NCBI GenBank assembly: GCA_034437735.1
Contig: DAOTTS010000118.1
Coordinates: 7,930 to 71,929, forward strand
Reading direction: 5' to 3'
DNA length: 64,000 bases
DNA from: Anaerolineae bacterium
GTDB taxonomy: Bacteria > Chloroflexota > Anaerolineae > B4-G1 > SLSP01
In this document: piece after piece, positions 8,517-34,410 of the stretch
Numbering within the stretch: position 1 is the first letter of the stretch
How the letters are laid out: the number at the start of each line of letters is the position of its first letter
Program-made: the position numbers and the translations under genes
The notes under the pieces: model-generated
The model's database searches: none
Seen by the model: the letters and a program-made list of their open reading frames with translations, nothing else
Told to the model about the DNA's origin: nothing

Positions 8517-9299
8517 CTACTTCTTACCCATCCGCGCCAGGGCTTCCAGGCTTCGTTTGGGAACGTCGAAGCCGAGTCCGTCCTCGCCACCCTCCTCGAC
8601 GACGTACCACTCCGGGTGATGCTGAGTTTCAGCCAGTTCGAAGATCGTGTCCCAATCGGCCTTGCCTTCGCCGATCACAGAACCGGGCTCGCCGCCGTAG
8701 TCCTTCAAGTGTATCGACTTCGCGCGGCCCGGGAACTTGCGCAGTATCTTGATGGGATCGCCGTCGCCATTGGCGCAGTTACCGATATCCATCTGCATCA
8801 CCACGTCCTCGGTCGTGTTTGAGAACAGAACCTCCCACGCAGTCTCTTCACCAAAGTACCCGAAGTCGAAGGGATGAGCATGATATCCGGTGAGCATGCC
8901 CAACGGCTTCAGTTTCGCGGCCACGGTATTCAGAATCTCCGCCAGTTCCAGCGTCGTATCGAGTTGGCTCGTGCGCTGCTTATCCGCCGCGATGATCAGG
9001 AACTTGTTGCCCAGGATCTGGTTCATCTCGATGGTCCGCTCCAGGTTATCGCCCAGCAGCGCGCCGGTGGCCAGATGGAAACCGCAACAGACTAAGCCAC
9101 TGTCGTCATACATCTTGCGGATCTCCTGCGGTGTGTGCTCCATCCATTCGAGTGCCTCACCGTTGTACCCCCATGGCTCCGCCGCGACGTAGCCCAGATC
9201 CGCGACCGAATCCAACGTCGCCGCAAGACCCTTCTGAACCTCACCGCGAACGGCGAAAAGCTGCAGCCCGATCGGTATCTTCTTTGCATCCTCTGACAT
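8517..9299 (-). CDS. sugar phosphate isomerase/epimerase (xylose isomerase-like TIM barrel)
   Basis: Start moved to MSEDAKK (ATG at 9299) because AGGAGG lies 8 nt upstream. The TIM-barrel family is marked by CGFHLATGAL...YHAHPFDF.... Confidence 0.8.
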   Translation of the reverse strand: MSEDAKKIPIGLQLFAVRGEVQKGLAATLDSVADLGYVAAEPWGYNGEALEWMEHTPQEIRKMYDDSGLVCCGFHLATGALLGDNLERTIEMNQILGNKFLIIAADKQRTSQLDTTLELAEILNTVAAKLKPLGMLTGYHAHPFDFGYFGEETAWEVLFSNTTEDVVMQMDIGNCANGDGDPIKILRKFPGRAKSIHLKDYGGEPGSVIGEGKADWDTIFELAETQHHPEWYVVEEGGEDGLGFDVPKRSLEALARMGKK

Positions 9300-9402
9300 T
9301 CTATATCCTCCTGTGGATAAATGGTTGACCTTATTGTCATACCGTTTGTCAAAAATGCAACTGATCAATGAGCGCCCTCGACGTCCGCCGGGTCGCGTCC
9401 CC

Positions 9403-10567: not shown

Positions 10568-11995
10568 TCACGTATGACGATAAAGGTCCCAACGGAAATA
10601 GGTCCCGATCGCTTCCTCCAACACGTCGGCGATGTGACTGCGCGTGACGGCGACGTGATGTTCAAATCCACTCCGACATAGCACGTCCATCAAGCCCTGG
10701 AGGTTCGGGATTCTCAACACGGCCACACCGCCTTGGAAAGTGGGGACCGAGTCGTCAGTCATCTCGCCCTCACCCACATACGCCTTGATCGTACCGTTAA
10801 AATCATCCGTTGACGCCCGGAAAAAGGAGATCGGCCCCGGCGCAGCCTGTCCCTTGATCGCGCCAAAACAGCGATCGGCACCCAAAGACTGGCCCAGAAT
10901 ATCCAGGTTTGAGATCTCAATCTCCGCCTGCATAAAGCTCTTGGGGTAGTTGCTGCAGTGCGTATTGATGCACATATCCCGGTCGTCACCGTAGTTGTTG
11001 TTCCAATCCTGGAAGGACGGCGCGTTCCCGGAGGCGAGGTAGAGCGCATACATCGAGACCGCGCCCATTACGTCCACCTCACAGGCGCTGGGAAATCCGC
11101 GATCCCCCATCATCGCCATAGAAACGCACGTCGCGCACCCGTAGTTCTTTTGAATGGAGTCCCAGCACTCAACCGCGCTGGCATCGCACTCATTCTCATC
11201 CATCCACCGGTCGATCACAACCGACAGCTTCGCCTGTTTGAGCACGTTAGCCGCTGGTATCGCCTCGGGAATCGTCCCGTAGTTGCGAAGGGATTCGATC
11301 TTGGCCTTGACGTCCGGATCGTCCGGATCCATCGACTGAGCCGCAAAGATGATCTCCGAGAGATCGACCGGTACCACCGTGATGCCCGAATCTTGCAGCA
11401 GCTTCTCACTGAACCGAACCGTCTGGAAAGCAGCGGGGCGCGCCCCAATCGCGCCAATCCGGGCGCCTTTTAGCCCACCGACCACCCGACAGACGCGTCC
11501 GAAATACTCGAGATCCTTCTCGAAGTCTGGACCGTCAATCGGATAGGTGTGCAGCGAGGTATTAGTGAAAGGAATGCCGTACTGATAGAGGTTGTTACAG
11601 ACGGAAAGCTTGCCACAGAAGGCATCGCGCCGGTTGTTCACCGAGAGCTTACCCAACTCATCATCACACGCTTGGACGAGCACCGGCACGTCCAGGCCGG
11701 ACAGATCCAAAGTCTGAACGACCGCAAGTTCGTCCCCAAAGTTCGGCAGCACGACGATGACGCCGTCAATCTCCTCGGCGCGCTCGCGAAACAGGTTGGC
11801 GCAGAGCTTCGCGTGCTCCCGCGTCTCAATGGCCCCATTCGGAGTTGCGTCCTTGGGTGGGATCACGTAGTCATAACCGTGAGCATCCAGCGTCTCCAAC
11901 AACTTGGCCCGCACCCCGACGGCCAAATCGGAGTTGAAAAACCCCCGGGTTCCAACGATCAATCCAAAACAAAGTGTCTTCTCTGCCATCCTCAT
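10568..11995 (-). CDS. L-fucose/L-arabinose isomerase family protein
   Basis: 475 aa with global similarity to the FucI/AraA family. RBS TAAGGAG. Confidence 0.7.
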   Translation of the reverse strand: MRMAEKTLCFGLIVGTRGFFNSDLAVGVRAKLLETLDAHGYDYVIPPKDATPNGAIETREHAKLCANLFRERAEEIDGVIVVLPNFGDELAVVQTLDLSGLDVPVLVQACDDELGKLSVNNRRDAFCGKLSVCNNLYQYGIPFTNTSLHTYPIDGPDFEKDLEYFGRVCRVVGGLKGARIGAIGARPAAFQTVRFSEKLLQDSGITVVPVDLSEIIFAAQSMDPDDPDVKAKIESLRNYGTIPEAIPAANVLKQAKLSVVIDRWMDENECDASAVECWDSIQKNYGCATCVSMAMMGDRGFPSACEVDVMGAVSMYALYLASGNAPSFQDWNNNYGDDRDMCINTHCSNYPKSFMQAEIEISNLDILGQSLGADRCFGAIKGQAAPGPISFFRASTDDFNGTIKAYVGEGEMTDDSVPTFQGGVAVLRIPNLQGLMDVLCRSGFEHHVAVTRSHIADVLEEAIGTYFRWDLYRHT

Positions 11996-12070
11996 CGTGC
12001 GTCACTCCTTAATATATGATGGGTGATACGTGGTTTTTGACTTGCTGAACTTCTGCATCCAGCCGGTGAC

Positions 12071-12571
12071 CTACGCGTCCAGTAAAGCCTCGATATCGGG
12101 AGCGATCGACGCGGGTTCGACCTTGGAACCATATCGTTCGACGACCTTTCCCTCCCGATCCACCAGGAACTTGGTAAAGTTCCACTTGATCGCCTGCGTC
12201 CCCAGGAAACCGGGCACCGATGACTTGAGGTAGCGATAGAGCGGATGGGTACCCGGCCCATTGACCTCAATCTTGTCAAACATAGGAAAGGTGACACCGT
12301 AGTTCACACTACAGAACTGGCGAATCTCCTCTGCGTCACCCGGCTCCTGGTTCATAAACTGGTTGCAAGGAAACCCTAAAATCGCAAATCCCTGATCCTT
12401 GTAACGCTCGTAGAGATCTTGAAGGCCCTCGTACTGCGGGGTAAACCCACACTTACTCGCTGTATTGACGATGAGGAGCACCTTGCCCTGATAATCCGCA
12501 AGGGATTGCTCCAGCCCCATCAAGTTCCGCGCCGAAAACTCATAGACGTTCTTAGCGACATTCTCAGCCAT
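12071..12571 (-). CDS. gpx: glutathione peroxidase (Cys type)
   Basis: [15 protein letters not shown] and GFPCNQF are canonical GPx motifs. Cys occupies the catalytic position, with no in-frame TGA. Confidence 0.9.
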
Positions 12572-13106
12572 TCGTCTGCTCCTTTCTATTAGGATAGATT
12601 CGATCGGGAGGCACGCGCCGGGCAGGCCGCTCGATTAGCTCAACCATGAACCCGACCAAGGCCTCCGTGTCGAGATACGCATAATGCCCATCACCATCGA
12701 GCCCAAACCTGGCCCCATCCATAATCATCGCAACACCCGCAGCCTCTGCTTGGGCTAAGGCCTCTTCCATATCATCGACCAGGAATCCAAAGTGGTGCAC
12801 GCCATAGCCGTGCGCCTCGATGAAATCCGCGTACACCGTGTCACCCTCCAGCGGTTCGATAAGCTCGATCCGCGTATCTCCCATATGGGAGAGTGCCAGA
12901 CGCATCTTGTAGTCCGCGGGCTGGCCATGATAGGTCATGGACGAGACGAGCGGCTTCCCGTAGGTGTAAATATCCCATGGACCGATGCCGAAACGCGTCC
13001 AATAGGTCGAAACTGCGTCATCCAGATTCTCGACCACGATCGCCACTTGGGCGACCCCCTGTTTAAGGAATGGCAATTCGGGCACGTGAAGATCCCTAAG
13101 TTTCAT
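12564..13106 (-). CDS. VOC (glyoxalase/bleomycin resistance/dioxygenase) family protein
   Basis: Two tandem beta-alpha-beta-beta-beta modules with H/E metal ligands (HHFGFLVDD). RBS AAGGAGG. Confidence 0.7.
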
Positions 13107-13194
13107 TCTGCCTCCTTCTCATCAAACCAACAATCCAACAGCCACAACGACGGAACCTCAAGGGATCCGACGCTGAACCGCACGTCGGAGGAGA

Positions 13195-13404
13195 TCAGCC
13201 GGGAAGAAAGACCGCTTTCAGAACCCGACCCTGCATGGCCAACGCAGCCCCGCGCTCGAAGTCCTCCAGAGAAAAACGATGCGTGATCCACCGGTCCGCA
13301 GGGATGCGACCGGTGTCCATAAGGGCCAGCGCCATCCGCTGGTGGCGTGGGGCGAAGATAGTCGTGCCGATAAGGTGCAAAGCCTGATAGTGGACGAGGT
13401 TCAT
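13195..13404 (-). pseudogene. 3'-terminal remnant (about 70 codons) of a Zn-dependent alcohol/polyol dehydrogenase
   Basis: ...[65 protein letters not shown] aligns at about 50% identity to the C-terminus of the intact ADH at 19490-20554. The upstream 280 codons are absent. A C9 homopolymer sits at 13463-13471. Confidence 0.55.
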
Positions 13405-13533
13405 ACCTCCGACGCCTCCGGCAGGGCCACATCGTCCACACCGAAATCACCGGGCGCGCTCCCCCCCCCTGCCCTCATCGTATCACTCAAATGCGACCTC
13501 CACAAATGCTTCAGCTGCCCGGCACACCGCCGG

Positions 13534-14832
13534 CTACCCCATGGAAAGAACCGAATCCTGCAGATGCCTCAGTCGCGTCACAAATTTTCCCTGATCCGGC
13601 TGGAAGTTATCGTAGGTCAGCGGTTCCCCCTTGGCGATCTCAGCCGTGACCGCCCCTCCCGGCGTGATCCCCAGGGGCACCGCCCGGCACGCGACCGCCT
13701 CTTCATAGGTATAGATCCGACCCAGATAATCAGCCTCTCCAATCTCACCGACGACCTGTCCCGGTTCCAGATCGCGCTTTGCGATGGGAATCACCTCTGA
13801 GACTAACCGGGTGGATGCTACGGTCCGCTCTCCATAGAGCACCGCCTCGGCCATCGCCAATGGGGTCTCGATATTGCACAGGTGATAAGGACGAAGGAGC
13901 GTATAGTAAGGTCCGGATCCCATCGAGACAAATTGCATACCCGCTCGCACCTGGTCATCACGGCTCGTCACAATGGCAAAGACCGCCGGCGCCACATCCC
14001 CCGTCGTAAAATCCACACATCCTCGATGCTCGAAGATCCCGCCATCCTCACTCGGCACGAAGACTCGATTGAGCGCAGGCACCTCAACCTTGATCCCGTG
14101 CATACCCGGAATGTCGGGAACCAGGCCGGTCGCGTTCGAGACGGCAGCCATCTCAACCATCGTCTTGGATCCATCCTTGAAAGCGGAGAGCATCTTCGGG
14201 TTCATCCCTTTCCGCTCCGCTTCCTCCCGGCAGCTCTCCGGTGTAGCACTGTGATCAATTGGATTGTTCTTGCCTTTGCCGAGGCAGACGACCTCAAACC
14301 CCAGAGCGCGGGCTTGATTGTAGATCGTCTTTAGAACGCCGGGTTCATCCCCGGAGGCGACCGTATAGACACAGCCGGCCCGCTGAGCCAGCCGGTGAAG
14401 CATCGGCCCTACCGTCACGTCTGTCTCTACGTTGAGCATAACCACGTGGGTGCCGTGCTCGATACACGTCCAGGCGACCCGGGCTCCAACGTCGGTCAAT
14501 CCCGTAGCCTCAACCACGACGTCGACCGACGGCAGACGCGCCGGCAGCGGGGCATCCTCCGTGATCACGTATTGACCGGATCGCAGGGCATCCTCGGCCT
14601 CACCCACCTGATGGGTCACACAGAGGTCGGCGTCTGCCAGCCCGAGCGATCGCAACACACGGAGCGGTCGTTCGACCTGAATATCCGCGATCACCCGTGT
14701 CTCCAATCCCTCCATTTGATGGGTCACGTGAACCAATCCCGATCCCATCTGTCCACATCCCACCAATCCTGCCAAGACAGGATGACCTTCCGCTTCCCGC
14801 ATGCACAAACGTTCGTAGAGTTCCATCGACAC
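13534..14832 (-). CDS. NAD(P)-binding oxidoreductase with C-terminal SAF domain (COG4091-type 'predicted homoserine dehydrogenase')
   Basis: [11 protein letters not shown] Rossmann motif. Core block [14 protein letters not shown]...[21 protein letters not shown] is shared with its paralog at 18057-19400. Confidence 0.7.
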
Positions 14833-14876
14833 GTCCTTCCAAGAATCCGCCGCTTATCGGGCTCTCGTATCCCCCG

Positions 14877-16430
14877 TCACGGTGACCGCAGCACAGCCAA
14901 TCGTCCAAAATCCTCCCGGAGATCTTCGTAAAGTTGTTTATACAGGTCGAAATACGCCATATAGACAGCGTGACTTTCAGGATCGGGGTCCATCGGCTCC
15001 ACGTACTCGGCCCAGGACTTCGCCACTGAAAAATCGTCAAAGAGACCAGTAGCGACGCCGGCGAGGATCGCATCCCCGAAGGGCGCCCCCTCCCGACGTT
15101 TGGCCAATACAATCGGCACGTCGAACACGTCCGCGATGATCTGCCGCCAAAGACGGCTGACCGCCCCACCTTCATTCAACACCATGGGATAGTTGACCTG
15201 GAGTCCGGCCTCCTGAATCAACCGGAACGAGTCGTACATCGCGTAGGCGACCCCTTCCATCATCGCCCGTACCAGATGCCCCTTGGTATGGTGGAGCGAT
15301 AGCCCAAAGGCGACCCCTCGGGCGTTCGCATCCCAGATAGGGGTGCGCTCTCCCATCAAGAAGGGCAGCATAATCAGCCCCTCCGACCCGGGGGGCACCT
15401 CCGCTGCCTGCAGGGTGAGCAAATCATACGCAGAGATATCCAACGTTCGCTCGACTTCACGCTCATAGGGAGAGAATCCATCGCGCAGGAACCGCAGACA
15501 CTGCCCGCCCGTCATCGTCGTCGGTACCGTGACGTAAGTGTTGGCCGAATCGACCGTATAGGGAAAATTGATCATCAATTGCCCCATCTCGGAGAAGTTG
15601 AAGGCTGAGTCACGATGAACGACGCCGAAATTGCCGACGGAGCCCAGGTTACTCTGAAAATCACCGACTTCGATCGCTCCGGCGCCCACCCAACTCGCGT
15701 TACAATCGACCTGTCCGGCCGCGACCGACGTTCCGGCGGCCAATCCCGTCGCCTCCGCGGCCGCGCCGGTCACCTCCCCAACGATATCCGTGCACCGATG
15801 GACCTCCGGCAAAATATCAGGATCGATGCCGATCTCGCCTAACATGGCCTCGTCAAACTGACGCTCCCGAAGATCGTAGGCCACGCCGAAGAACGCCCCA
15901 CCGGAGTCGTGCACAGTTTCTCGGCCCGTCAGTTTCATCGTCACATATCCATCGATTGTGAGCGCCGTGTGGATGCGGCTGAAGCTGTCGGGGCGATGAC
16001 GTTGCTCCCAAAGCAGATTGACCAAAGCCGGATGATCCTCCAGTCGATAGCCGGAGAGCTGGAAAATGCGCGCCTCACCCACCTCAGCCTTCAACCACGC
16101 GACGACGTCGGTCGCCCGCCGGTCCATCAGGTTGTACGCTCTGTGGATCGGGCTGCCCTCCCCATCGACCATCACCAGCGAGGGCAGCGCGGACGAAACG
16201 GCCACGCCACGGACGTCATCACCCGTCACGCCACCCTCCGATAGAATCTGGGGGATCAAACGACAGGCGGCCTCCCAGTAGAGGGTTGGCTCATGCTCCG
16301 ACCAACCCGGATGCTCGTGAATGAGAGGGTATTCCTCAAAGGCATAGCCCAGCACCTGCCCCTCCCCATCGATCAGACAGGCTTTGGCCCCACCGGTACC
16401 ATAATCAAGCCCCAATAGCAGATGTGCCAT
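14877..16430 (-). CDS. FGGY family carbohydrate kinase
   Basis: Start corrected to [16 protein letters not shown] (ATG 16430, GGAGG RBS); the 137-codon upstream extension in the ORF track has no support. FGGY N- and C-terminal domains are present. Confidence 0.85.
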
Positions 16431-16530
16431 AGCAACCTCCGGAAGACGAGAGAGCCTTACCAACCCAGGAGCCGAGCTCCGTGATAAAACAAGGACATGC
16501 TGCCAAGGTCTTTCAACTGGCTGAGCTTCG

Positions 16531-18048
16531 CTACAACAGTTGGTGTGAGATTTCCCGCACGGCCGGATAGAGCTTCCGGTAGAGCGCAAAACGCTCTGCG
16601 TAGCGCAGAGCCCGTGCCGGATCCGGCTCAAAACGCCGTGCCATTGCCACGGATTTGGCCGCCGCGTCCACAACGCTCGAAAAACGACCGGCTCCTGCAC
16701 CGGCGAGTAGAGCTGCGCCCCATGCCGCAGCTTCGGTGACCTCCGGCACGACGACCGGCACGCCGGTGATATCGGCCTTGAGTTGCAGCCAGAGATCGGA
16801 CTTAGCACCGCCGCCGATCGCTCTGAGCTCCGTGATCTCAACCCCGCCGCGTTTCAACAGATCCAGATTGAGACGCAGTTCGAACGTCAAGCCCTCCAAC
16901 ATCGCCTTGACCAACGTGCTGCGATCCGTGTCGAACGTGAGCCCCAACACCGCCCCCTTGGACGCCGGGTCGAAGGTCGGGGTTCCGCTGCCTGCAAAAT
17001 GCGGCAGCACGAGGAGAGAGGTAGGATCGGAGTTCGTCCCCTCGAGGAGCATATCGTAGGCATCCCTAGACACGCGCGCCGCCTCTGCTTTCACGTCGGG
17101 CGCTAACGTGTCGCGGAACCAGCGCAGAATCAGCCCGCCGCTGTGATTCAGCGTCATCGCGAGATAGAGTCCGGGAAGGGTGTGATGATACACCGAGATA
17201 TTCCCTTCGTACAGGGGATCCGTAAGGTCCGGTGACGATAGCGCCACCTCCACAACCTCCGCTGTACCCGTGGAGACCATCGCGAGGCCGGCCCCGGTTA
17301 GGCCGACCCCCAGGGCTCCGCAGGCCTGATCATGGCCGCCGGTCGCGACGACCGGACGCGACGACAGCCCCAGGGAGACGGCAAGGTCCCGATCCATACG
17401 ACCGATCGCCGTGCCTGAGGCCCTCACCGGCGACAGCCGCCCAGGGTCCAGATCCAAAAATGATAGGATCTCCGCGTCCCAGCAGTGATGATGCAGATCG
17501 TACATCTGGGTTCGCGAGGCCAGGCACCAGCTGACCGCGGCCGAGCCGGTCAGCTTTCGGATGAGAAAATCCTCGTACAACCGGAAAGCATCCGCCGATT
17601 GCCATACATCCAGCTCGTAATCCCGCAGCCAGAGCAGTTTGGGCAGCGTGTTGATCGTGTGAACCGGCATCCCGGTCCGGTCGAAGAGCGCCCGCGCACC
17701 AAAACGCTCCCGCAACTGCTGATTCTGTTCGCCGGTCCGGGTGTCCATCCCCAGGATCGCAGGGCGGATCGCACGCCCGTCTCCATCGACCGGGATGACA
17801 GCCTCCCCCTGTACTGACAAACCTATGGCCTCGACGGGCGCTTCCTCATCCGTTGTAAGCTGCCCCGTAACCTCCGCCAGGGCGTCCCTGGCGAGCGTCC
17901 AGACCCGTTCCGCATCCTGTTCAGCCCATCCTGGGACGGGGATATCAATCGCGTATTCCCGCGCTACGGAGGCGACGATCGCACCTTCCGGGTCGAAGGC
18001 CACGACTTTGCAGCCGGTCGTACCGATGTCCAAACCGATCAGCGTCAT
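16531..18048 (-). CDS. FGGY family carbohydrate kinase (paralog)
   Basis: [29 protein letters not shown]. The start overlaps the end of the upstream dehydrogenase gene. Confidence 0.85.
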
Positions 18049-18056
18049 CGCCCCTC

Positions 18057-19400
18057 CTAACGGAGCCGATCCAGGGCGACGAGAAGCGCGTCGGACGCGA
18101 TCTCACCGGCAAACCAGCGATCCTGCAATCGACGCAGGGAAAGCACGACGGAGGGTTCGCTCACCAAGACGTCATCAAGGGTAATGGGCTGGTCGACCTC
18201 GACCGGTCGGATGACCTTGGCGTTTTTTGCCAACCCGATAGGCAGCAGCCGTTCAGCCTTTGCGACCTCGTACCGATCGATCAGACCGTAGTAGCTGCTC
18301 CCACCGATCCCCTCCAGCGTGTCACCGGGTGCCAACCGCTGCTTGGCAACGGAGATCACTTCGGACGTCAACCGGTCCAAGGGAATCATATTGGAACGCC
18401 CCTCGATCACGAGCAGCGCACAGGTCAGAGGAACCTCAATGCTGCAAAGATGATAAGGTCGGAAGAGCGTATAATAAGGACCGGGGCCCATGTCCCGCAG
18501 GACCATCGCCTCCCGTAGGCGGGGATGATCCGTCCATACGATGAGAAAGACCCCTGGCGCTACTTTGCCCACACCATAATCGACGACGCCGATCTGATTC
18601 AGGATACCGCCATCCTCCTCAAGCCGGAAGACGCGCTCCAGGATCTCCCGATGGGTCACCGGACCATGCATGCCGCGCACGTCCGGCACCAATCCGGTCG
18701 CGTTGGAGACGGCTGCCATCTCAATCATCGTCTTACTGCCGTCGACGAACTCGATCAGCATCGTCGGATTCAACCCGCGCCGTGCCGCCTCCTGAGCCCA
18801 ATCGGGATCCGTGGGTTTGGCGTGGCGGTCCAGGGGATTGTTCTTCCCTTTGCCTGCGGCCACAATCGTGAAACCCAACGCGTCCGCAAAGTCATAGAGC
18901 TCCTTACAGGCGGCCGGCTCATCCCCGGCGGCCAATGCGTACTGGACGTCGTACTGTTCGGCGTACCATCGCAGGATAGGCCCGACGGTGATGTCGGTCT
19001 CGACGTTCATCATCGCGAGCTGCTGACCGTGCCGGGCCGCACGCAGCGCCGCTCGGGAACCGACCTCGGGCACGCCGGTCGCCTCAAGCATCACGTCGAC
19101 GGTCTGCATATCGGTGACAACTCGGAAGTCAGAGGCCGCAACGCGCCGGCCCTCCCGCACCGATGCATCGGCGTCCTCAGGGGTCTCGACGTCAGTCACC
19201 GTCCCCTCCACCCCGCCGATGTCATAGGCTTGCCTTGCCCGCTCCGGATCGATATCGGCGATAGCAACCACCTCGATCCCCTTCATCATCGTCGTCTCCG
19301 CGACGACGTCGGTGCCCATCTGGCCCGCCCCGATCAACCCAATCCGGACCGGATTCCCGGCCCTTTCGCGCGCCGAAAGCATCGCATTGAGTCCAATCAT
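18057..19400 (-). CDS. NAD(P)-binding oxidoreductase with SAF domain (COG4091-type), paralog of 13534-14832
   Basis: IGLIGAGQMGTD. About 60% identity to the paralog over the GKGKNNP...[12 protein letters not shown] core. Confidence 0.7.
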   Translation of the reverse strand: MIGLNAMLSARERAGNPVRIGLIGAGQMGTDVVAETTMMKGIEVVAIADIDPERARQAYDIGGVEGTVTDVETPEDADASVREGRRVAASDFRVVTDMQTVDVMLEATGVPEVGSRAALRAARHGQQLAMMNVETDITVGPILRWYAEQYDVQYALAAGDEPAACKELYDFADALGFTIVAAGKGKNNPLDRHAKPTDPDWAQEAARRGLNPTMLIEFVDGSKTMIEMAAVSNATGLVPDVRGMHGPVTHREILERVFRLEEDGGILNQIGVVDYGVGKVAPGVFLIVWTDHPRLREAMVLRDMGPGPYYTLFRPYHLCSIEVPLTCALLVIEGRSNMIPLDRLTSEVISVAKQRLAPGDTLEGIGGSSYYGLIDRYEVAKAERLLPIGLAKNAKVIRPVEVDQPITLDDVLVSEPSVVLSLRRLQDRWFAGEIASDALLVALDRLR

Positions 19401-19489
19401 GGATCATTCATCTCCTTATCATCACGTCTCTCACGGTGCAGATTCCGTGCTTCGGAAAACGCGCTGAGTCCCCGTACCCTTTACTGAGA

Positions 19490-20554
19490 CTACAAGTCAG
19501 GCTGGACCAGCACCTTGAGTCCGAGGCCGCTGGAGGCCACGTCGAACGCCTGATCGATCTGGTCGAGTGCGAATGTGTGGGTAATCAAGCGCTCAGCCGG
19601 AATGAGACCCCGCTTGAGGGTATCCAGGGCCAGCGCGTGCATCGTTGGATGGTACGAGAAGCCACCGACCACTTCGATCTCACCGTAGTGAATGCGGTTG
19701 CCATCCAGGGTAGTGGTGGGATCGGCCTTGGGCAGCCCACCGAAGAGCACAACCCGTCCGCCTTTGCGGGCAGCCAGCACGGCCTCAGTTTGCGTCTCAG
19801 CGACCGGATTCGCACAGATCACCATCTCCGCCCCCCGTCCTTCCGTAAGAGCCCGGACCCTATCCACAAAATTCTCCCGGGTGGGATCGATGATAGCATC
19901 GGGATGGAAGTCCTTGGCCAATTCGCGACGCGTCTCGCTCCGCTGGGAGACGATCACGCGGGCACCTCGGGCCTTGGCGATCGCGATGTGAATACATCCG
20001 ATAGGTCCGGCTCCAATCACCACCACCGTGTCATCGAGATCAGTACCGGCCTTGGCATGACTCGCGAGGACGGAGCTGGCAGGCTCGGCAAGTGCAGCGT
20101 GCCTGGACGAGAGGCCATCCGGGATTTTATGGACAATCCCGAGTCTGAGCATCTCGTCCGTCAATTGCAGCTTCTCCGCAAACCCACCCGGATAGCCCGG
20201 CGTGATACCCAGAAAATGGAGGGAATCACAGAGGTTAAAGAGCCCCCGGCGGCAGTAGAAGCACGTCCCGCAGTGAATATCCGGCGCGATGGCTAAGCGT
20301 TCACCGACCTCATACCCCTCCACACCTTGTCCGACACCGATAACAGTACCGGCGACTTCGTGTCCGGCGATGATGCCCGGAATACCCGGCAGGCTCCCTT
20401 CGCCTGCCGGTGGCCCTTCGCGCCAACGGCGCACATCCGACCCACAGACGCCACAAACCTCAACGCGCAGCACGAGTCCATCGCGAGGCACCTGAGGATC
20501 CGGCACCTCCCGTACTTCATACGTTCGTTTATCCGTTAATAAAGCCGCTTTCAT
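19490..20554 (-). CDS. Zn-dependent alcohol/polyol dehydrogenase (MDR, sorbitol/threonine DH-like)
   Basis: Start corrected to MKAALL (ATG 20554). CGVCGSD structural-zinc motif and GHE catalytic-zinc motif. Confidence 0.85.
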
Positions 20555-21192
20555 AGTTCCCTTTCTGACGCCTGGTCGCCTTCCGTTTCCTGCGCGATCT
20601 TCCGCCCTACCGCACCCGATGGATGGGTCTCTCCGAACGCCTGTCGCGTATACCCTCGGGCTTCCAGGAGCAACGCACACAGCACGTTCCCCACGGCCGA
20701 CGCGACAAGCGAACTGCCTGTTGCCACCATGCCATAGGGATCGATGCCTTCGATCGCGGGCACCAGCAGCACCGCGTCGCTCATCGCAGCCAGCGGTGAA
20801 TCGAGGCTCTCGGTCTGAGCCACGAGGGTCGCCCCCCGGGACCTGGCGATCTCCACGAACCCATTGACCTCAGCACTGTGCCCCCCCTTTGAGATCGCAT
20901 AGACCAGGTCGCGATCGGTCACCGCCCCGGATCCACCGTGCAGTGCGTCCGCCGCATTGATTGGCAGCGCCGGCGTTCCGGAGCACGAAAGCAAATGGGC
21001 CAACCGCTGAGCGACAGCGTGGGACGTGCCGGCCCCCGTCACCAGGACGTGGCCTTCGCACGCCAGCAGCAGGTTGACGACCCGCAACCATCGAGCATCC
21101 ACACCGGAAGCAAGAGCCTCTATTGCCGCTGCATCCCGGTCAATAACCGCCTGCGCCCGCGAACGGAGCCAGGCCTCTGAGAATTCGGACAT
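20551..21192 (-). CDS. SIS-domain sugar-phosphate isomerase (PHI/KpsF-like)
   Basis: Start at MSEFSEAW (AGGAGG 6 nt upstream). SIS motif [15 protein letters not shown]. The stop overlaps the ADH start (ATGA). Confidence 0.7.
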
Positions 21193-21202
21193 TCCGTACC
21201 TC

Positions 21203-22177
21203 CTACGACCCTTCGGGTTGAGTTTCAGACAACACAGCCTCGGCCGTGTCACGATCGGTCACCAATACGTCCAACAGCCCGCTCTTCAGCGCCGCTTTGA
21301 CGATCTCATGCTTGACCGCTCCCCCACCGACGCCAATCACCGTGGGAATGCACCGGATCGTGTCCAACGATAGGCCGATGATCCTCTGATTGAGCTTATC
21401 CAGAGAGACGGCCTCACCCTGGGCGTCGATGTAACGGAGTGCAATATCCCCAACCGCCCCATGAGCCTCCAATAGCCGTAGGTCATCCGCTGTGAGGATC
21501 GTCCCATCCCTGAGCAGAACGGAGTCCGGCGTGGGTACGCCCAACCCCACGACGGCGATGTCGGCACGGGCAGCGAGCTTGAGTACTTCGGCAACCTGGT
21601 GGTCCTGACGAAGCGCGCGCGCGGCGTCAAGGGTGCTGACGATACCGGGCGCCGGCAGCAAGCGCAGCTTGGCGTTGAGCTTCTGCGCCGCACGGCGGAT
21701 CAGCTCCGTCGAGTGTTCCCATGCGTCCACCGGCCCCAATCCCCCCGAGAGTTGAACCACGCTGACGTCCGGCATCGTGCGGGCTGGCAGCGCCTCGACT
21801 GTCGACCAGAGCGTTCGCCCCCAGGCCATCGCGACGATGCTGGACCGCGTGAGGCGCCGCAGCAGGCATTCAGCCGCCGGGGGCCCTAGATCACGGGCAA
21901 CCAACTCCGGCTGTGCCGGATGATTCACCTCAACAAGCACTGCCTCCTCCAGGCCGTAGGTCGCCTCAAGATCGTGCTCCAGATCGGCAGCACCCCCACT
22001 GGGCGGCACCAGAGAGATATTGACGACGTGAACATCCCTTGCCTGCTGAAGCAACCGTGAGACTTTGGGCCGAGAAAGCCCGAACCGTTCGGCGATCTCC
22101 CGCTGCGTGAGCCCATCCGCATAGTAAGCCTGGGCCACCCTATAGAGAAGACGATGGTGCTGGGGGTCAATCTGCAT
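21203..22177 (-). CDS. SorC/DeoR-family sugar-binding transcriptional regulator
   Basis: N-terminal HTH LTQREIAERFGLSRPKVSRLL followed by a sugar-binding SorC-type domain. Confidence 0.85.
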   Translation of the reverse strand: MQIDPQHHRLLYRVAQAYYADGLTQREIAERFGLSRPKVSRLLQQARDVHVVNISLVPPSGGAADLEHDLEATYGLEEAVLVEVNHPAQPELVARDLGPPAAECLLRRLTRSSIVAMAWGRTLWSTVEALPARTMPDVSVVQLSGGLGPVDAWEHSTELIRRAAQKLNAKLRLLPAPGIVSTLDAARALRQDHQVAEVLKLAARADIAVVGLGVPTPDSVLLRDGTILTADDLRLLEAHGAVGDIALRYIDAQGEAVSLDKLNQRIIGLSLDTIRCIPTVIGVGGGAVKHEIVKAALKSGLLDVLVTDRDTAEAVLSETQPEGS

Positions 22178-22264: not shown

Positions 22265-22534
22265 TAGAATACCTGGAGTATGGATGAATGTCAAGTCGCG
22301 GACAAAAAAAACGACACGAGCTTATCATGCTCGCTCGGAGGAGATTTACCATCGCCGGCTTCGCCAGATAAAGCCCTGAAGAATACGATCAATTGCTCTC
22401 GTTGCAAGTTTCAAGTACACTAGCATGCACTGCAAGATCAGCGCCGGACGTTATGCCCCCTCCGGAGGGACGACCAAGCGCAAAGGATAGAAAGACGTAC
22501 GGTCTACGGGCATTCGAGAAGGAGAACACAACCA

Positions 22535-24643
22535 ATGACAATCCCAAACGATTACGAATCGCGCATCTATGCGGGCGTGCTAGGCAAGATCATCGGGGTC
22601 TACCTCGGACGGCCTTTCGAGGGCTGGACCTATGAGCGTATTATGGAGGAATTGGGAGAGATCCAGTACTACGTCCACGAACGATTGAACAAGCCCTTGA
22701 TTGTCACTGACGACGATATCTCCGGCACCTTCACCTTCCTGCGCGCCCTGCCGGATCACGGAAATCGCGCCGACATCACACCGGCGGAGATCGGATCGAC
22801 GTGGCTCAATTACATTATTGAGAACAAAACGATCCTCTGGTGGGGCGGGATGGGAAATTCCACCGAACACACCGCATTCCTTCGTCTGCAATCAGGGATC
22901 CCCGCCCCGGAGAGTGGGTCGATGGAGACGAACAGCCGGATCGTGGCGGAGCAGATCGGAGCGCAGATCTTCATCGACGGCTGGGCAATGGTCGCCCCGG
23001 GCGACCCGGAGCTGGCGGCGACCCTGGCGCGGAAAGCCGCTAGCGTCAGCCACGATGGCGAAGCCATCTACGGGGCGCAGGTCCTGGCTGCGATGGAATC
23101 CCTGGCCTTCGTGGAGAACGATCTCAACCGCCTGTTGGATACGGCCGTGACCTTCATCCCTGATGACGCCATCATCTATCGCATGATCGCCGAACTGCGT
23201 GCCCTTCACGAGCAGGAACCTGATTGGCGAAAAGCCCTGAAATGGCTGGCAACTCACTACGGGTACGATACCTACGGCGGTAACGTCCATATCGTACCCA
23301 ACCACGGCCTGATGATCCTCAGCCTTCTCTATGGGGACGACGACTTCCAGAGGACAATGATGATCGTCAATACCGGGGGATGGGATACGGACTGCAACTC
23401 CGGGAACGTCGGATGTCTGATGGGCATCAAAAATGGTCTACCCGGACTGGAAACCGGCCCCGACTATCGAGGCCCGGTAGCGGATCGTCTCTACCTGCCG
23501 ACGGCGGATGGTGGACGGGCGATTACGGACGCGCTGATCGAGACCTATCACATCGTCAACAGCGGGCGGGCCCTCGCCGGGCTCGAGCCTGTCGCGCCCA
23601 AGAACGGAGCACGCTACCACTTCAATATGCCGGGGGCCGTTCAGGGCTTCCTGCCGGACACCGCCATCGAAGCGAAAGGCACCCTGAAGCTTGAGAACGT
23701 CCCTGGACATAGCAAGACCGGGGCGCGTAGCCTCGCTTTCCAATATCAGGACATCGCCCCGGGTCGCGTGGCCCGGGCGGGCACAGCGACGTTCCTGACC
23801 GAGGAAGCTGCCAGCATGCCGGGCTATGGACTCATCTGTTCCCCCACCCTCTATGCCGGACAGACGGTCCGCGCCAGGGTGGAAGCTGACGCCGATAACC
23901 AAGAGCCGGTCACCTGCGGACTCTATCTCGTCACCTATGGACCGGATGACGAGCGGTCCCACCGCCAAGGCCCCTGGGTTGAGATGGAGCCGGGGGAAAC
24001 GCGCGTCTTCGAATGGACAATCGGTCCCACCTATGGCGATCCGATTGCCGAAGTCGGCATAGAGATCCATGCGGAGACCAGAGCCAGCGGCACCCTCTAC
24101 CTCGATACCCTGACCTGGGAGGGGGAACCTGACGCCGACCTGACCCCACCCAGTCACAACGGCACGATGGGGCAGCGCGCGTGGGTGGAGGATATGGACC
24201 ACGTCTGGGCTCGGGGGGGATCCCTTCGCGTGATCCAGGACGAGGGTACCGGGTTGCTCATCCAGGGAACCCGCCGGTGGCAGGACTACACGGTCCGCGC
24301 CAAGCTCTCGCCGCACATGATAGCGTCGGGCGGCATCGCGGCCCGGGTCCAGGGACTGAACCGCTACTATGCCCTACTGCTGGATCGCGATCATCGCGTA
24401 TGCCTCGTGAAATCCAGGGGGACCTGCACCGTCCTCGCGGAGACGGACTTCCCGTGGAACGTCGACGAGGAGTACGAACTCCAGTTATCCGTGCAGGGCG
24501 CCCGATTGCTCGCAAAAGTCGATGGCGAGACACTCTTCGACCTCAAGGATCGCCAAGCCCCCCTGACGGGAGGAGGGATCGCCCTTGTGTGCGAAGAGGG
24601 CCGAATGGACGTCATGAACATAAGCGTTCGTCCGAATGCATAG
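22535..24643 (+). CDS. fusion protein: ADP-ribosylglycohydrolase-fold domain + central beta-rich region + C-terminal DUF1080-like ConA/LamG jelly-roll domain
   Basis: ARH-fold motifs VTDDDISGTF and GGWDTDCNSGNVGCLMG. The first metal-binding motif reads GVYLGRPFEG (GDALG-like with Asp to Val). The C-terminus (WVED...RRWQDYTVRAKL...GGIAARVQGLNRYYALLLD) resembles DUF1080. RBS GAAGGAG. Confidence 0.7.
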   Translation: MTIPNDYESRIYAGVLGKIIGVYLGRPFEGWTYERIMEELGEIQYYVHERLNKPLIVTDDDISGTFTFLRALPDHGNRADITPAEIGSTWLNYIIENKTILWWGGMGNSTEHTAFLRLQSGIPAPESGSMETNSRIVAEQIGAQIFIDGWAMVAPGDPELAATLARKAASVSHDGEAIYGAQVLAAMESLAFVENDLNRLLDTAVTFIPDDAIIYRMIAELRALHEQEPDWRKALKWLATHYGYDTYGGNVHIVPNHGLMILSLLYGDDDFQRTMMIVNTGGWDTDCNSGNVGCLMGIKNGLPGLETGPDYRGPVADRLYLPTADGGRAITDALIETYHIVNSGRALAGLEPVAPKNGARYHFNMPGAVQGFLPDTAIEAKGTLKLENVPGHSKTGARSLAFQYQDIAPGRVARAGTATFLTEEAASMPGYGLICSPTLYAGQTVRARVEADADNQEPVTCGLYLVTYGPDDERSHRQGPWVEMEPGETRVFEWTIGPTYGDPIAEVGIEIHAETRASGTLYLDTLTWEGEPDADLTPPSHNGTMGQRAWVEDMDHVWARGGSLRVIQDEGTGLLIQGTRRWQDYTVRAKLSPHMIASGGIAARVQGLNRYYALLLDRDHRVCLVKSRGTCTVLAETDFPWNVDEEYELQLSVQGARLLAKVDGETLFDLKDRQAPLTGGGIALVCEEGRMDVMNISVRPNA

Positions 24644-24675
24644 GCAGGAAGACCATAGTGACAGAAGGAGCTCAT

Positions 24676-25713
24676 ATGGAAACGATGCTAGCAGCCGTAG
24701 TTGAAGAACCAGGAGCGCTCGGCGTCCGAGAGGTACCTATCGCTGAGATCGGACCGTACGAGGCAAAATGCCGACTGCTCTATGGAGCGACCTGTACCGG
24801 GACCGACCAGCATATCATAGCGGGCCGCTTTCCATGGCCGATCACATATCCTACGATTTTGGGCCACGAAAGCGTCGGAGAGATCATCGAGGTGGGATCC
24901 AAAGTGCGAAACTATCAAATCGGCGACTTGATCTCCCGGGTGGGAGCTCGCCCGCCGGAAGACAGCGACCTCAACGTCAACTGGGGCGGCTTCGCCGAAT
25001 ACGGCATCGCTGTGGACCATCAAGCGATGGCAGAGGATGGCGAGTCCCGATCCCGGTGGGCCCCCTATCGAGTTCACCAGGTCATCCCTCCCGAGATCGA
25101 TCCCAGGGCTGCCACGATGATCATTACGTGGAGGGAAACGCTCAGCACCACGATGCGCCTGGGAATCCAAGCCGGGGATCGCATCCTGGTCGTCGGTTCC
25201 GGCGGCAATGGGCTCGCTTTTGTGGCTCACGCCGCGTACGCCCAGGCCAGCCCGATTGTGATAATCGGGAACGTCAGACGCGAGTCACACGCGATGAGGG
25301 CCGGCGCGACGGGATACGTCGATTACAAAGCTGCCAACGTCGAGGAACAACTCACGGCGCTCAGCCCCGGCGGATTCGATTACGTGATCGATGCAGTAGG
25401 GAAATCGCAGACGGCCGATCAGGTACTCCCCCACCTCAACCCCGGCGGCACGCTCGCGATCTACGGCATTGATGATTATGACGCCACCATCCTCCATCCG
25501 AACCGCGCCCCCGGCACGTTTACCGTCTACAAGGGCGGATACGATGAAGCAGAAGCTCACGAGGAAGTCATCCAACGGATGCTGGGGGGAGCGCTCGACG
25601 CGTCCATCTGGCTGGACTTAGATCACGTCTTTCACCTTCAAACCCTTGGGCAAGCGATTGAAGCGGTGCGTGATCGACAGATGGTCAAAGCCTTGGTCAA
25701 ACTCAACGCCTGA
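24676..25713 (+). CDS. Zn-dependent alcohol dehydrogenase (MDR superfamily)
   Basis: Start at METMLAAV (RBS GAAGGAG). GHESVGEI zinc motif. The long N-terminal extension in the ORF track overlaps the preceding gene and is rejected. Confidence 0.8.
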   Translation: METMLAAVVEEPGALGVREVPIAEIGPYEAKCRLLYGATCTGTDQHIIAGRFPWPITYPTILGHESVGEIIEVGSKVRNYQIGDLISRVGARPPEDSDLNVNWGGFAEYGIAVDHQAMAEDGESRSRWAPYRVHQVIPPEIDPRAATMIITWRETLSTTMRLGIQAGDRILVVGSGGNGLAFVAHAAYAQASPIVIIGNVRRESHAMRAGATGYVDYKAANVEEQLTALSPGGFDYVIDAVGKSQTADQVLPHLNPGGTLAIYGIDDYDATILHPNRAPGTFTVYKGGYDEAEAHEEVIQRMLGGALDASIWLDLDHVFHLQTLGQAIEAVRDRQMVKALVKLNA

Positions 25714-25975: not shown

Positions 25976-26148
25976 ATGGTTGACCATTCATATCACAGGC
26001 CATCACGATCGAATGTAACGTAGGGGGAAAATTGCCATCCGGAGGGTATCACCGTTGCTGACGGTGAATACGATTCGATGGCAAGACATGAGAAGATCGT
26101 GAATGGAAGGGTTATTCAGGCAGTCCAAGCAAGGTGAGGAAGGAGAGG

Positions 26149-27357
26149 ATGATGTCTACGAACACCCATACCGACTCAATCACAGCGAACACGATAAGAT
26201 CAGAAAAGAAACACACCCAGCGCTCGAAATCTCGGGTGCAATCTGGACTTGCAGGGGTCGTGGTGGCAGAGAGCGACATCGCCAAGGTCGATGGGGAGCG
26301 GGGGACGCTCAGTTATCGCGGGTATGATATTGGGGATCTCGCGTGCCATTCGACGTTTGAGGAAGTGGTTTACCTGCTCTGGTACGGAGAGCTCCCCACT
26401 CAAGACGCGCTCGACAACTTCGCGGCGAAACTCGCCTCGGAGCGGGAGATCGACGAGACCACGTGGCAGGTCCTGACGATGCTACCCAGCGACGTGGAAC
26501 CTATGGATGCGCTGCGCACCGCGGTATCCACCCTCGCGTGTGCCGACCCGGCCAACGAAAACGGCAAGGTGAGCCACGAGGAGAACCTAAGAAAAGCAAT
26601 GAAACTCGTCGCCAAGTTCCCTACCGTCGTCGCCAGCTACTACCGGCACCTTCAGGGGGAACCCCGCATCCATCCCGATCCTTCGCTAAGTCATGCGGCC
26701 AACTTCCTCTACATGCTCTCGGGCACCCGCCCGGACGAGACCCAAGCCAAGGCGATGGACCTGGCGATGCTTCTCATGGCCGAACATGGATTCAACGCCT
26801 CCACGTTCTCGGCACGCGTCACCGCCTCGACACTCTCGGATATGTACGCAGCGATTACCACCGCGATCGGAACCCTGAAGGGTCCGCTTCACGGCGGCGC
26901 AAATCGACGAGCGATGGAGATGATGCTTGAGATCGGAGAGATCGAGCGTGTAGAGCCCTACATCAAGGAGGCCTTGGCCGCCAAGAAGCGTATTATGGGC
27001 TTCGGGCATCGCGTGTATAAGAAAGCCCCGGATCCGCGTTCGGCGTATCTGAGGGGGCGTCTCTACGAGCTGTGTGCAGATCTCCAGGATTTCCACTTCT
27101 ACAACCTGGCCACTGCCATCGCGGAAACCGTTGAGGCTCAGAAGGGTCTCTATCCCAACGTTGACTTCTATGCCGCGCCGATGCTCTATCTGGTCGGAAT
27201 TCCCCTGGAGCTCTTTGTCACGATCTTTGCGATCAGTCGCATCCCCGGCTGGACGACGCACGTGATGGATCAATATGGGAACAACCGCTTGCTGCGGCCT
27301 CTGAGTGAATATGTAGGTCCAGAAGACTGTGCCTACGTTCCCATTGACCAACGCTAA
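26149..27357 (+). CDS. gltA: citrate synthase
   Basis: GFGHRVYK and HGGAN citrate-synthase signatures. RBS GGAAGGAGAGG. ATG 26149 or 26152. Confidence 0.9.
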   Translation: MMSTNTHTDSITANTIRSEKKHTQRSKSRVQSGLAGVVVAESDIAKVDGERGTLSYRGYDIGDLACHSTFEEVVYLLWYGELPTQDALDNFAAKLASEREIDETTWQVLTMLPSDVEPMDALRTAVSTLACADPANENGKVSHEENLRKAMKLVAKFPTVVASYYRHLQGEPRIHPDPSLSHAANFLYMLSGTRPDETQAKAMDLAMLLMAEHGFNASTFSARVTASTLSDMYAAITTAIGTLKGPLHGGANRRAMEMMLEIGEIERVEPYIKEALAAKKRIMGFGHRVYKKAPDPRSAYLRGRLYELCADLQDFHFYNLATAIAETVEAQKGLYPNVDFYAAPMLYLVGIPLELFVTIFAISRIPGWTTHVMDQYGNNRLLRPLSEYVGPEDCAYVPIDQR

Positions 27358-27414
27358 TACGCGTGAACCGTGTACCAGGCCAACCTATCGATCAGGAACG
27401 GAGGAGCTTTCATC

Positions 27415-29355: not shown

Positions 29356-30371
29356 CCCACACCATGACGTTGATCCCGGGGGATGGCATAGGTCCGGAGG
29401 TCACGGGCGCTGCCCGCCGGGTTCTGGAAGCGACCGGGTTGTCCTTGGCATGGGATGTCCAGCACGCGGGTGCATCCGTAATGGATACGGAGGGAACCCC
29501 ACTGCCCAAACGGGTTCTCGAATCGGTTCGAACTCACGGCGTTGCGCTCAAAGGCCCAATCACCACGCCCGTGGGATCGGGATTCCGCAGCGTGAACGTC
29601 GCTATCCGCCGCGCACTGGACCTATACGCAAATCTCCGGCCAACCAAGAGCATCCCTGGACTCCCGCACACGCGGGAGAATGTGGATCTCGTGGTCGTTC
29701 GTGAGAACACGGAGGGCCTTTACGTCGGTATCGAACATGAAGTCATCGCGGGTGAAGCCTCGGAGGCCGTGCGCATCATCACGCGGCGGGGATCCGAGCG
29801 CATTGTGCGCTTCGCCTTCGAATATGCCCGGGCGAACGGACGGCAAAAGGTCACCGCCGTCCATAAGGGCAATATTCTCAAGGTCACAGACGGCCTCTTT
29901 CTCGACGCTGCAAAGCAGGTGGCGGAGGACTATGCCGATATCACCTTTGAGACCCGGATCGTCGACGCGATGTGTATGCAGTTGGTGATGCAACCGGAGG
30001 CGTACGACGTCCTGGTGATGCCCAATCTCTACGGCGACATCGTCAGTGACCTGTGCTCGGGGTTGGTCGGTGGGCTGGGCGTCACGCCGGGTGCCAACCT
30101 GGGCCGCGACCTGGCAGTCTTTGAGCCTGTGCACGGCTCCGCACCGGATATCGCAGGCCTGGATCAAGCGAATCCTTGCGCTGCCATTCTGACAGGCGCG
30201 CTGATGCTTCGCCACCTGGGCGAAGTCGAGACAGCGGCCCGCATCGAGTCGGCCGTCAACGAGGTGCTGAGTGAAGGGCAAGTCATCACCGCTGATCTTA
30301 AGCTTACCGAGGACACCCGAGAGGTGGTCGGCACGCAGGCGATGGCCGACGCCGTCATCGCCAAGCTCTGA
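29352..30371 (+). CDS. icd: isocitrate dehydrogenase (NAD-type, isopropylmalate DH family)
   Basis: Family blocks [17 protein letters not shown] and NLYGDIVSD. The start overlaps the aconitase stop (ATGA). Confidence 0.8.
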
Positions 30372-33178: not shown

Positions 33179-33302
33179 TGATTGTGGGATTGCAAGGTCA
33201 ATCGAGCGGCATAGTGTGCAGTACAAACCACTCAATATCCTCAAGCCTTGACCCGCTTTGAGCATTTGTTCCTGTTGTCCATCAACTGACAAGGAGTCAA
33301 CT

Positions 33303-34334: not shown

Positions 34335-34365
34335 GTAGATGCGAGAAAGTATCTTAAAAGTGCTC

Positions 34366-34410
34366 GTAGCCCCCGTCCCCGGGGGCGGAGGCCAAGGAAC
34401 TTTTTCGGAG
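34366..34410 (+). repeat. dispersed intergenic repeat, copy 1 of 3 (GCCCCCGTCCCCGGGGGCG...GGAACTTTTTCGG)
   Basis: Shares the CCCGT(C/A)CCC...CGGGGGCG core and the GGAAC(T/G)T(G/T)TT tail with the copies at 35287-35337 and 48816-48890. Confidence 0.5.

Follow-up and report, generated by a model that had tools for sequence, protein, structure and literature searches.

Why does a sugar operon carry the same enzyme families twice on one strand and in mirror order, and which substrate do these enzymes serve? The question is raised by a minus-strand gene cluster in a 64-kb stretch of DNA from an Anaerolineae bacterium (contig DAOTTS010000118.1; the whole stretch is called the window hereafter), in which a SorC-type regulator gene precedes two sets of genes for zinc-dependent alcohol dehydrogenases (ADH), DXR-II-like oxidoreductases (DRL) and FGGY carbohydrate kinases. 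We read this locus as a fused operon that is partly eroding and that serves a phosphorylated sugar or polyol with a branched chain. Its substrate probably derives from D-apiose and would be processed by the DXR-II-like enzymes, and we give this reading a probability of about 0.5.

The minus-strand open reading frames (ORFs) of the window were scanned with Pfam and NCBIfam profiles, and the scans confirmed the gene order and families listed in a first-pass annotation of this DNA (SorC, SIS, Zn-ADH, DRL, FGGY, FGGY, DRL, ADH remnant). All coordinates of window genes are on the minus strand unless stated otherwise. The leading gene encodes a SorC/DeoR-type sugar-binding regulator (21203-22177; PF04198 Sugar-bind, 205.6 bits, with an N-terminal helix-turn-helix at residues 3-50), which scores under the DeoR and LsrR equivalog cut-offs of NCBIfam. 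It is followed by module A, which comprises a 213 amino acid SIS-domain sugar-phosphate isomerase (20551-21192; PF01380, 60.4 bits), the 354 amino acid Zn-dependent alcohol/polyol dehydrogenase ADH_A (19490-20554; ADH_N and ADH_zinc_N domains; under all NCBIfam equivalog cut-offs), whose start overlaps the stop of the SIS gene by 4 nt, the DXR-II-like NAD(P) oxidoreductase DRL_A of COG4091 (18057-19400) and the 505 amino acid carbohydrate kinase FGGY_A (16531-18048; FGGY_N and FGGY_C domains). Module B consists of the 517 amino acid kinase FGGY_B (14877-16430; FGGY_N and FGGY_C domains), the second COG4091 oxidoreductase DRL_B (13534-14832), an ADH_B pseudogene (13195-13508) and a glyoxalase/VOC-family protein (Glx), a possible epimerase or isomerase (12564-13106; PF13669, 75.6 bits). 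This latter gene is the conserved last gene of module B and follows ADH_B in most loci that carry the module.

To place the two modules, we annotated 160 related loci (80 from GTDB, found with DRL_B as query, and 80 from metagenomes, found with DRL_A; L numbers below) by BLAST against the window proteins, with a simple greedy ORF caller, so that an uncalled gene is not proof of absence. Module A recurs across these loci in the order (SorC)-SIS-ADH_A-DRL_A-(FucI)-FGGY_A, where FucI stands for an L-fucose-isomerase-like gene. Module B recurs in the order (SorC)-FGGY_B-DRL_B-ADH_B-Glx(-FucI) in at least six phyla, among Chloroflexota, Bacteroidota, Spirochaetota, Planctomycetota, Verrucomicrobiota, KSB1 and Bacillota, with a SIS protein in place of Glx in the last of these. 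The modules are often neighbors, their relative arrangement varies, and each is also found alone: they stand in B-then-A order in L043, L064, L065 and L077 and are divergent, with two SorC genes, in L145, and the A-then-B fusion under one SorC gene is restricted to the clade of the window (L005, L009, L010 and L017). Since the internal order of each module is fixed, a head-to-tail join of A and B yields the mirror order, which is real, as had been claimed, yet expected from the joining of two fixed-order modules. On these comparisons, the locus is best described as one predicted SorC-controlled operon in which a lineage of Anaerolineae type (Chloroflexota) has joined two old, independently conserved modules end to end.

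The first-pass annotation had proposed instead that a unit of ADH, dehydrogenase and kinase was duplicated locally and then rearranged, with decay of one ADH and with two linear polyol or ketose specificities. Such a history would explain why four enzyme families are each found twice on a single strand, with one ADH as a pseudogene, and all paired families do share ancient ancestry. However, pairwise alignment gave identities of just 44% for DRL_A and DRL_B (put at about 60% in that annotation) and 28% for FGGY_A and FGGY_B, and ADH_A and ADH_B are 40% identical; the ADH remnant, said to share about 50% with the C-terminus of the intact ADH, shares 33% over 67 amino acids. DRL_A scores higher against Brucella DRL (386.6 bits) than against DRL_B (355.6 bits), and FGGY_A reaches 186-195 bits against structures of LsrK and XylB, compared with 163.5 bits against FGGY_B, so that both proteins are nearer to characterized proteins from other phyla than to their partners in the window. 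In addition, DRL_A and DRL_B each have a large orthologue set of their own (65-96% identity; the named members are mostly MAGs, i.e., metagenome-assembled genomes, of Anaerolineae and other Chloroflexota), with DRL_A orthologues at 70-96% identity in Chloroflexota MAGs. In a neighbor-joining tree of 89 DRL proteins, calculated without bootstrap and without DLO1/DLO2 references, clade A is sister to the DXR-II group of Brucella, Rhizobium and Mesorhizobium, and clade B lies outside both, apart from clade A, this group and a Priestia-type clade. The paired genes are therefore not closer to each other than to homologues elsewhere, a comparison judged in spirit, with homologues from outside the source genome. 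Each module has its own orthologous group and fixed order (across phyla for module B), and L005 has this arrangement in intact form. Taken together, identities, scores, tree and synteny led us to reject a recent tandem or segmental duplication, and the identities, scores, orthologous groups and L005 contradict any recent or local duplication, which we consider very improbable as the origin of the locus.

The enzymes that give the operon its character are the two DRLs. Both match the DRL catalytic domain PF21135 far above its cut-off of 27 bits (209.6 bits for DRL_A and 209.0 bits for DRL_B). DRL_A aligns with Brucella DRL (3UPL) over residues 1-429 (386.6 bits, 44% identity) and DRL_B with 3UPY over residues 8-430 (342.1 bits, 39% identity), and this match to PDB sequences is decisive for the predicted sharing of the fold. 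DRL/DXR-II of Brucella abortus is an established reductoisomerase of DXP (1-deoxy-D-xylulose 5-phosphate) with crystal structures 3UPL and 3UPY, in which K191, K193 and T229 anchor fosmidomycin and substrate, and G121, H250, R320 and Y322 are conserved in DXR-II (PMC3847144). All seven residues are kept in both DRL_A and DRL_B. DRL_A departs from the Brucella enzyme at V351 (T), and DRL_B at E174 (T), F178 (Q), P118, K133 and P346, positions 174 and 178 being dimer-interface residues. The earlier statement that COG4091 enzymes have no firmly established substrate is thus incomplete, as it passes over the DRL/DXR-II branch, a proven DXP reductoisomerase of which clades A and B are uncharacterized relatives. 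DRL_A and DRL_B share fold, full-length domain order and anchoring residues with the Brucella enzyme; they differ from it in forming separate clades and in lying in sugar operons with kinase, ADH and isomerase genes rather than in contexts of the methylerythritol phosphate (MEP) pathway. A relationship to D-apionate oxidoisomerase (ApnO) was also considered and found no support, as NCBIfam gives neither DRL a specific family.

Clues to the substrate come from the genes that accompany the modules elsewhere. We clustered the unlabelled neighbor genes of the related loci and annotated the clusters with Pfam. The recurrent neighbors are a CUT2 sugar ATP-binding cassette (ABC) transporter, TIM barrels resembling xylose isomerase, DUF4432 proteins resembling mutarotases, DUF6786, an E1/E2/E3 complex of the 2-oxoacid/acetoin-dehydrogenase type and glycoside hydrolase family 140 (GH140), the sole glycoside-hydrolase family among the annotated recurrent clusters. 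GH140 genes occur in 23 of the 136 loci of at least 5 kb and in both module sets; 19 of 28 lie within 207 bp of a core gene, and some are placed within module B (L060, L069 and L082). PF13204 was matched by all 18 GH140 members tested, and a profile built from these 18 proteins scored 384 bits against PDB 8T9W, annotated as "Apiosidase", and 295 bits against 3KZS/5MSY. CUT2 ABC transporter genes stand beside roughly half of the listed module-A loci, as judged by eye. Taking into account this DXR-II-like core and its recurring apiosidase neighbors, it is possible that the modules represent an undescribed route of apiose breakdown.

In the pathway that we propose, GH140 apiosidases would release the sugar, most likely D-apiose, and a CUT2 ABC transporter would import it in related loci. 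The free aldose would be isomerized by the FucI-like enzyme, reduced to the polyol by a Zn-ADH, or both, and the sugar or polyol would then be phosphorylated by an FGGY kinase. The DRL would oxidize the branched polyol phosphate and rearrange its carbon skeleton, in effect the reverse of the DXP reductoisomerase reaction, to give a linear pentulose phosphate, which the SIS or the glyoxalase-like (VOC) enzyme may adapt for the pentose phosphate pathway. On chemical grounds, apiitol phosphate is the hydroxymethyl analogue of MEP; a primary alcohol adjoining the tertiary carbon would be oxidized, and an alpha-ketol (retro-aldol/aldol) rearrangement would then linearize the molecule. The two modules may serve two isomers or two related substrates. 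The first-pass annotation had suggested a polyol or ketose pathway of oxidation, phosphorylation and isomerization, a reasonable reading that is sharpened here to a branched-chain and probably apiose-derived substrate.

The genes around DRLs in cultured organisms bear on the same question. In two Rhizobiaceae plasmids (Rhizobium sp. N324 pRspN324e, L089 7665-16280; Sinorhizobium meliloti Rm41 pRM41A, L172 6382-15191), a Brucella-type DRL opens an operon of the order DRL-E1alpha-E1beta-E2-E3, after a SorC-type regulator gene of its own, and both operons face a divergently transcribed ABC transporter and sugar kinase. A Priestia plasmid (L090) carries E1/E2/E3, then DRL, then an FGGY kinase, and all three loci lie beside an ABC or major facilitator superfamily (MFS) transporter and a sugar kinase. 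The position of DXR-II genes beside this acetoin- or pyruvate-dehydrogenase-like complex suggests a catabolic role even for the "biosynthetic" clade, for example from MEP through DXP to acetyl-CoA and glyceraldehyde 3-phosphate. In Listeria monocytogenes (L173 6778-11590) and Ligilactobacillus salivarius (L174 8004-12800), DRL heads an operon for a glucitol/sorbitol-type phosphotransferase system (PTS; GutM, IIC, IIB, IIA) and thus occupies the usual place of a polyol-phosphate dehydrogenase. These operons resemble the modules described here in that DRL follows a SorC-type regulator and in their logic of phosphorylation followed by DRL oxidation; they differ in having a PTS in place of the FGGY kinase, in the lack of Zn-ADH and FucI-like genes and in DRLs that are 37-39% identical. 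In every cultured-organism context examined, DRL comes after a step that supplies a phosphorylated sugar or polyol. The erythritol (ery) operons of Brucella and Rhizobium likewise combine a SorC-family regulator, an FGGY polyol kinase, a polyol-phosphate dehydrogenase and isomerases that lead into the pentose phosphate pathway; they differ in that EryB is of the glycerol-3-phosphate-dehydrogenase type, dependent on flavin adenine dinucleotide, in having no DRL and in their linear substrate.

Other substrates and functions were weighed as well. The modules might salvage or catabolize 2-C-methyl-D-erythritol or 1-deoxy-D-xylulose: a kinase would form MEP or DXP, the DRL would interconvert the two, and E1/E2/E3 would elsewhere cleave DXP to acetyl-CoA and glyceraldehyde 3-phosphate. 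The conversion of MEP to DXP is the sole proven chemistry of the family, DXP is a structural analogue of acetoin, and E1/E2/E3 genes directly adjoin DRL in replicons of Rhizobium, Sinorhizobium and Priestia as well as in some eight loci from metagenomes or MAGs. However, E1/E2/E3 genes are absent from the window and its close relatives, this route would leave the Zn-ADHs, the FucI-like isomerase and the SIS and VOC proteins without a role, and in clades A and B linkage to GH140 is commoner than linkage to E1/E2/E3. We therefore regard this route as unlikely for the present operon; it should be noted that, as a methyl-branched or 1-deoxy substrate is the better match for the loci linked to E1/E2/E3, it is a serious rival for at least part of the family. 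An ordinary pathway for a linear pentitol, tetritol or pentulose, with DRLs acting as plain polyol-phosphate dehydrogenases and no skeletal rearrangement, would agree with the XylB-like character of the FGGY kinases (344 and 306 bits) and with the Listeria and Ligilactobacillus operons, where DRL sits in the usual place of a simple sorbitol-6-phosphate dehydrogenase. It is unlikely in view of the retained catalytic and anchoring residues of DXR-II and of the GH140 linkage, which indicates a branched sugar, and it leaves the consistent use of the unusual DRL fold unexplained. The DRL genes might also encode DXR-II enzymes of biosynthesis, which convert DXP to MEP for isoprenoids, and merely lie among sugar genes, given that both keep the DXR-II-diagnostic residues, that the DXR-II clade of Brucella and Rhizobium is the sister of clade A and that a Chloroflexus aurantiacus homologue complemented dxr-deficient E. 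coli (PMC3847144). Two copies, each with a Zn-ADH and an FGGY kinase beside it and both placed under a SorC sugar regulator, related loci that place DRLs beside ABC transporters and GH140 genes, and a module B that close relatives lose freely, unlike an essential biosynthetic gene, make this explanation quite improbable.

Several points weigh against a D-apiose-derived substrate and a single fused operon. The window has neither a GH140 gene nor a transporter adjoining the operon, and some module-B and DXR-II-clade loci carry acetoin-dehydrogenase-like E1/E2/E3 instead of GH140, a linkage for which a methyl-branched or 1-deoxy substrate (methylerythritol, deoxyxylulose) would fit better than apiose. 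The substrate is proposed from gene neighborhood alone, and several chemically different routes would fit the same gene set, which fixes neither the stereochemistry nor the hydroxyl that is phosphorylated. The DRL tree carries no bootstrap values and takes in no DLO1/DLO2 reference sequences, FGGY_A and FGGY_B are just about 25% identical to the apulose kinase AplK, and co-transcription is deduced from gene spacing alone. In the literature, we found no paper that ties the DRL/DXR-II family to a catabolic pathway, a search of incomplete coverage that is not proof of novelty.

The closest comparison among known systems is with D-apiose catabolism. The apiose cluster of E. coli ST131, which has experimental support, combines a SorC regulator, the FGGY kinase AplK and a CUT2 transporter (PMC13001218). 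The D-apiose degradation I cluster (ApsI, AplK, AptA/AptB) is known from Pectobacterium and E. coli ST131 (Carter et al. 2018, cited in PMC13001218). The present operon shares with cluster I a SorC-type regulator and an FGGY kinase; the CUT2 transporter of cluster I and the supply of its substrate by apiosidases have counterparts in relatives of the present locus, which are linked to CUT2 and GH140 genes. The present operon differs in its kinases, as E. coli SE15 AplK is only 24-27% identical to all proteins of the FGGY_A and FGGY_B types and no AplK orthologue was recognized, and in the split transketolase: no AptA/AptB-like ORF was found among the called ORFs of the window, and homologues were seen only in L028 and L034. 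DRL, Zn-ADH, SIS and VOC proteins are not among the known apiose-pathway enzymes named in PMC13001218 and PMC12994016. An assignment of the kinases as orthologues of known enzymes was rejected, since FGGY_A (344.5 bits) and FGGY_B (306.0 bits) remain under the cut-off of TIGR01312 for the xylulokinase XylB (380.25), identity to AplK is about 25% and the best PDB matches reach just 190-195 bits. The AptA/AptB-like genes of L028 (about 11957-13762) and L034 (18661-20501), with N-terminal subunits 43-45% and C-terminal subunits 33-38% identical, are separated by a few kb from genes of module B, in MAGs of the Leptolinea type, which suggests that the known and the putative apiose pathways may coexist.

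A broader and more tentative proposal, possible though clearly less probable than the reading given at the outset, is that the DXR-II-like enzymes of clades A and B form the core of a fifth D-apiose pathway, in which apiose would be reduced to apiitol and phosphorylated, and a DXR-type reaction run in reverse would oxidize and rearrange the branched polyol phosphate into a linear pentulose phosphate. COG4091/DRL would then be ancestrally a catabolic, isomerizing polyol-phosphate dehydrogenase, and the biosynthetic DXR-II of Brucella, Listeria and others a co-opted offshoot. The evolutionary side of the locus, a fusion of modules and one decayed gene, is ordinary. Of wider interest is the conserved pair of operon types, which is widespread in metagenomes and MAGs, reaches at least six phyla in the case of module B and is tightly linked to GH140. 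If confirmed, the proposal would provide a new way to break down apiose, a branched plant sugar found in rhamnogalacturonan-II and apiogalacturonan, with a bearing on plant cell-wall breakdown in sediments, anaerobic digesters and guts. It would also offer a physiological role for the large "homoserine-dehydrogenase-like / SAF domain" family and an origin for the alternative DXP reductoisomerase used by Brucella, which has been discussed as a drug target.

The erosion of the operon is most evident at ADH_B. A 69 amino acid ORF (13195-13404) matches the C-terminus of ADH_A in a tblastn search within the window (the 33% over 67 amino acids given above; E = 2e-7) and is 82% identical to residues 283-350 of ADH_B in L005 (GCA_054920915.1). 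This latter locus has the order SorC-SIS-ADH_A-DRL_A-FGGY_A-FGGY_B-DRL_B-ADH_B-Glx-GPx-FucI-like, where GPx is a glutathione peroxidase and ADH_B an intact protein of 355 amino acids. Alignment to this orthologue showed that about 22 codons of the 5' end are also retained (about 13441-13508). The window and L005 are collinear across the whole operon at 77-80% nucleotide identity, and the sole break lies inside ADH_B, where about 0.8 kb has been deleted between the two pieces. The decay of one ADH, as first proposed, is thus borne out; the description as a 3' remnant was right about the 3' end and missed the 5' piece and the internal deletion. A 115 amino acid ORF (13103-13450) was tried as the remnant and discarded, as it shows no similarity to ADH and the true remnant lies in another frame. 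Within the 5' fragment there is a run of eight G (about 13465-13472), where the intact orthologue encodes VVVN; this run could be due to slippage or to an assembly artefact.

In the comparison with L005, dN/dS was 0.04-0.12 for all genes, among them FGGY_B, DRL_B and what survives of ADH_B, which indicates that the deletion in ADH_B is recent and that the remaining module B still looks functional (FGGY_B is 86% identical to its L005 orthologue, with a dN/dS of 0.05). The SorC proteins of the two loci are 83% identical, and the SIS orthologues of L001 and L005 have 213 amino acids, as in the window. Module B is being lost piecemeal in the clade of the window. In L001 and L002, the nearest relatives by DRL_A, FGGY_B is reduced to its first 110 nt or so, and 3.8 kb down to the GPx gene has been deleted; L004 is without module B, L007/L009 is without FGGY_B, and ADH_B was not called in L010 or L017 by the greedy ORF caller. 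An 80 amino acid ORF in L001 (10223-10465) and L002 (6415-6657) keeps the N-terminus of FGGY_B at 90% identity and marks the deletion scar.

Downstream of module B, the operon continues with the gene for glutathione peroxidase (12071-12571; PF00255, 146.6 bits), which overlaps the glyoxalase-like gene by 8 nt, and with a 475 amino acid protein that carries an L-fucose-isomerase C-domain (10568-11995; PF02952, 87.4 bits). Only in the closest relatives (L001, L004, L005, L010 and L096) does the glutathione peroxidase gene separate the modules from the FucI-like gene, and it looks like a lineage-specific passenger within the sugar operon. The FucI-like gene accompanies both modules and occurs in the majority of related loci in either set. 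Its product matches the sulfoquinovose isomerase profile weakly (79.8 bits; cut-off 700), a sequence search of PDB gave no match for it, and it is probably an aldose-ketose isomerase for the free sugar. Two genes downstream of it, a xylose-isomerase-like TIM barrel of the AP_endonuc_2 family is encoded (8517-9368), which is syntenic in L001; the family recurs beside module B in 12 other loci, and the protein may serve the pathway as an epimerase or isomerase. As for the SIS protein, it is without CBS domains, and its 100.7 bits against the arabinose-5-phosphate isomerase KpsF/GutQ (TIGR00393) do not reach the cut-off of 203.7.

The operon genes lie on the same strand with short gaps or overlaps. 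Upstream of SorC there is a sigma-70-like promoter match (22266-22294; TTGACA-17-TATTCT), identified by consensus alone, and the scan detected no terminator-like sites between the operon genes; both observations are weakly informative, as the counts of promoter- and terminator-like sites in the region are at or below shuffle expectation. The evidence for one transcription unit under SorC, as predicted here, is therefore weak but consistent.

Divergently from SorC, the plus strand encodes a 702 amino acid protein of the ADP-ribosylglycohydrolase (ARH) family (22535-24643; PF03747, 179.6 bits, the match covering just the first 300 or so residues). The gene keeps this divergent position upstream of SorC in L001, L003, L004 and L005, and its membership in the sugar system is uncertain. 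A GFO_IDH_MocA gene adjoins the ARH gene in L001, L003 and L004, directly between ARH and SorC in L001 and L003, and is absent from the window. After the ARH-like gene, a third Zn-ADH is encoded on the plus strand (about 24650-25713), syntenic with L001 30-1082. Farther along the same strand, the window carries housekeeping genes and further sugar genes that are unrelated to the operon: consecutive genes for citrate synthase, aconitase and isocitrate dehydrogenase (26134-30371) and a PfkB kinase gene beside a KDPG/KHG aldolase gene (33258-35203).

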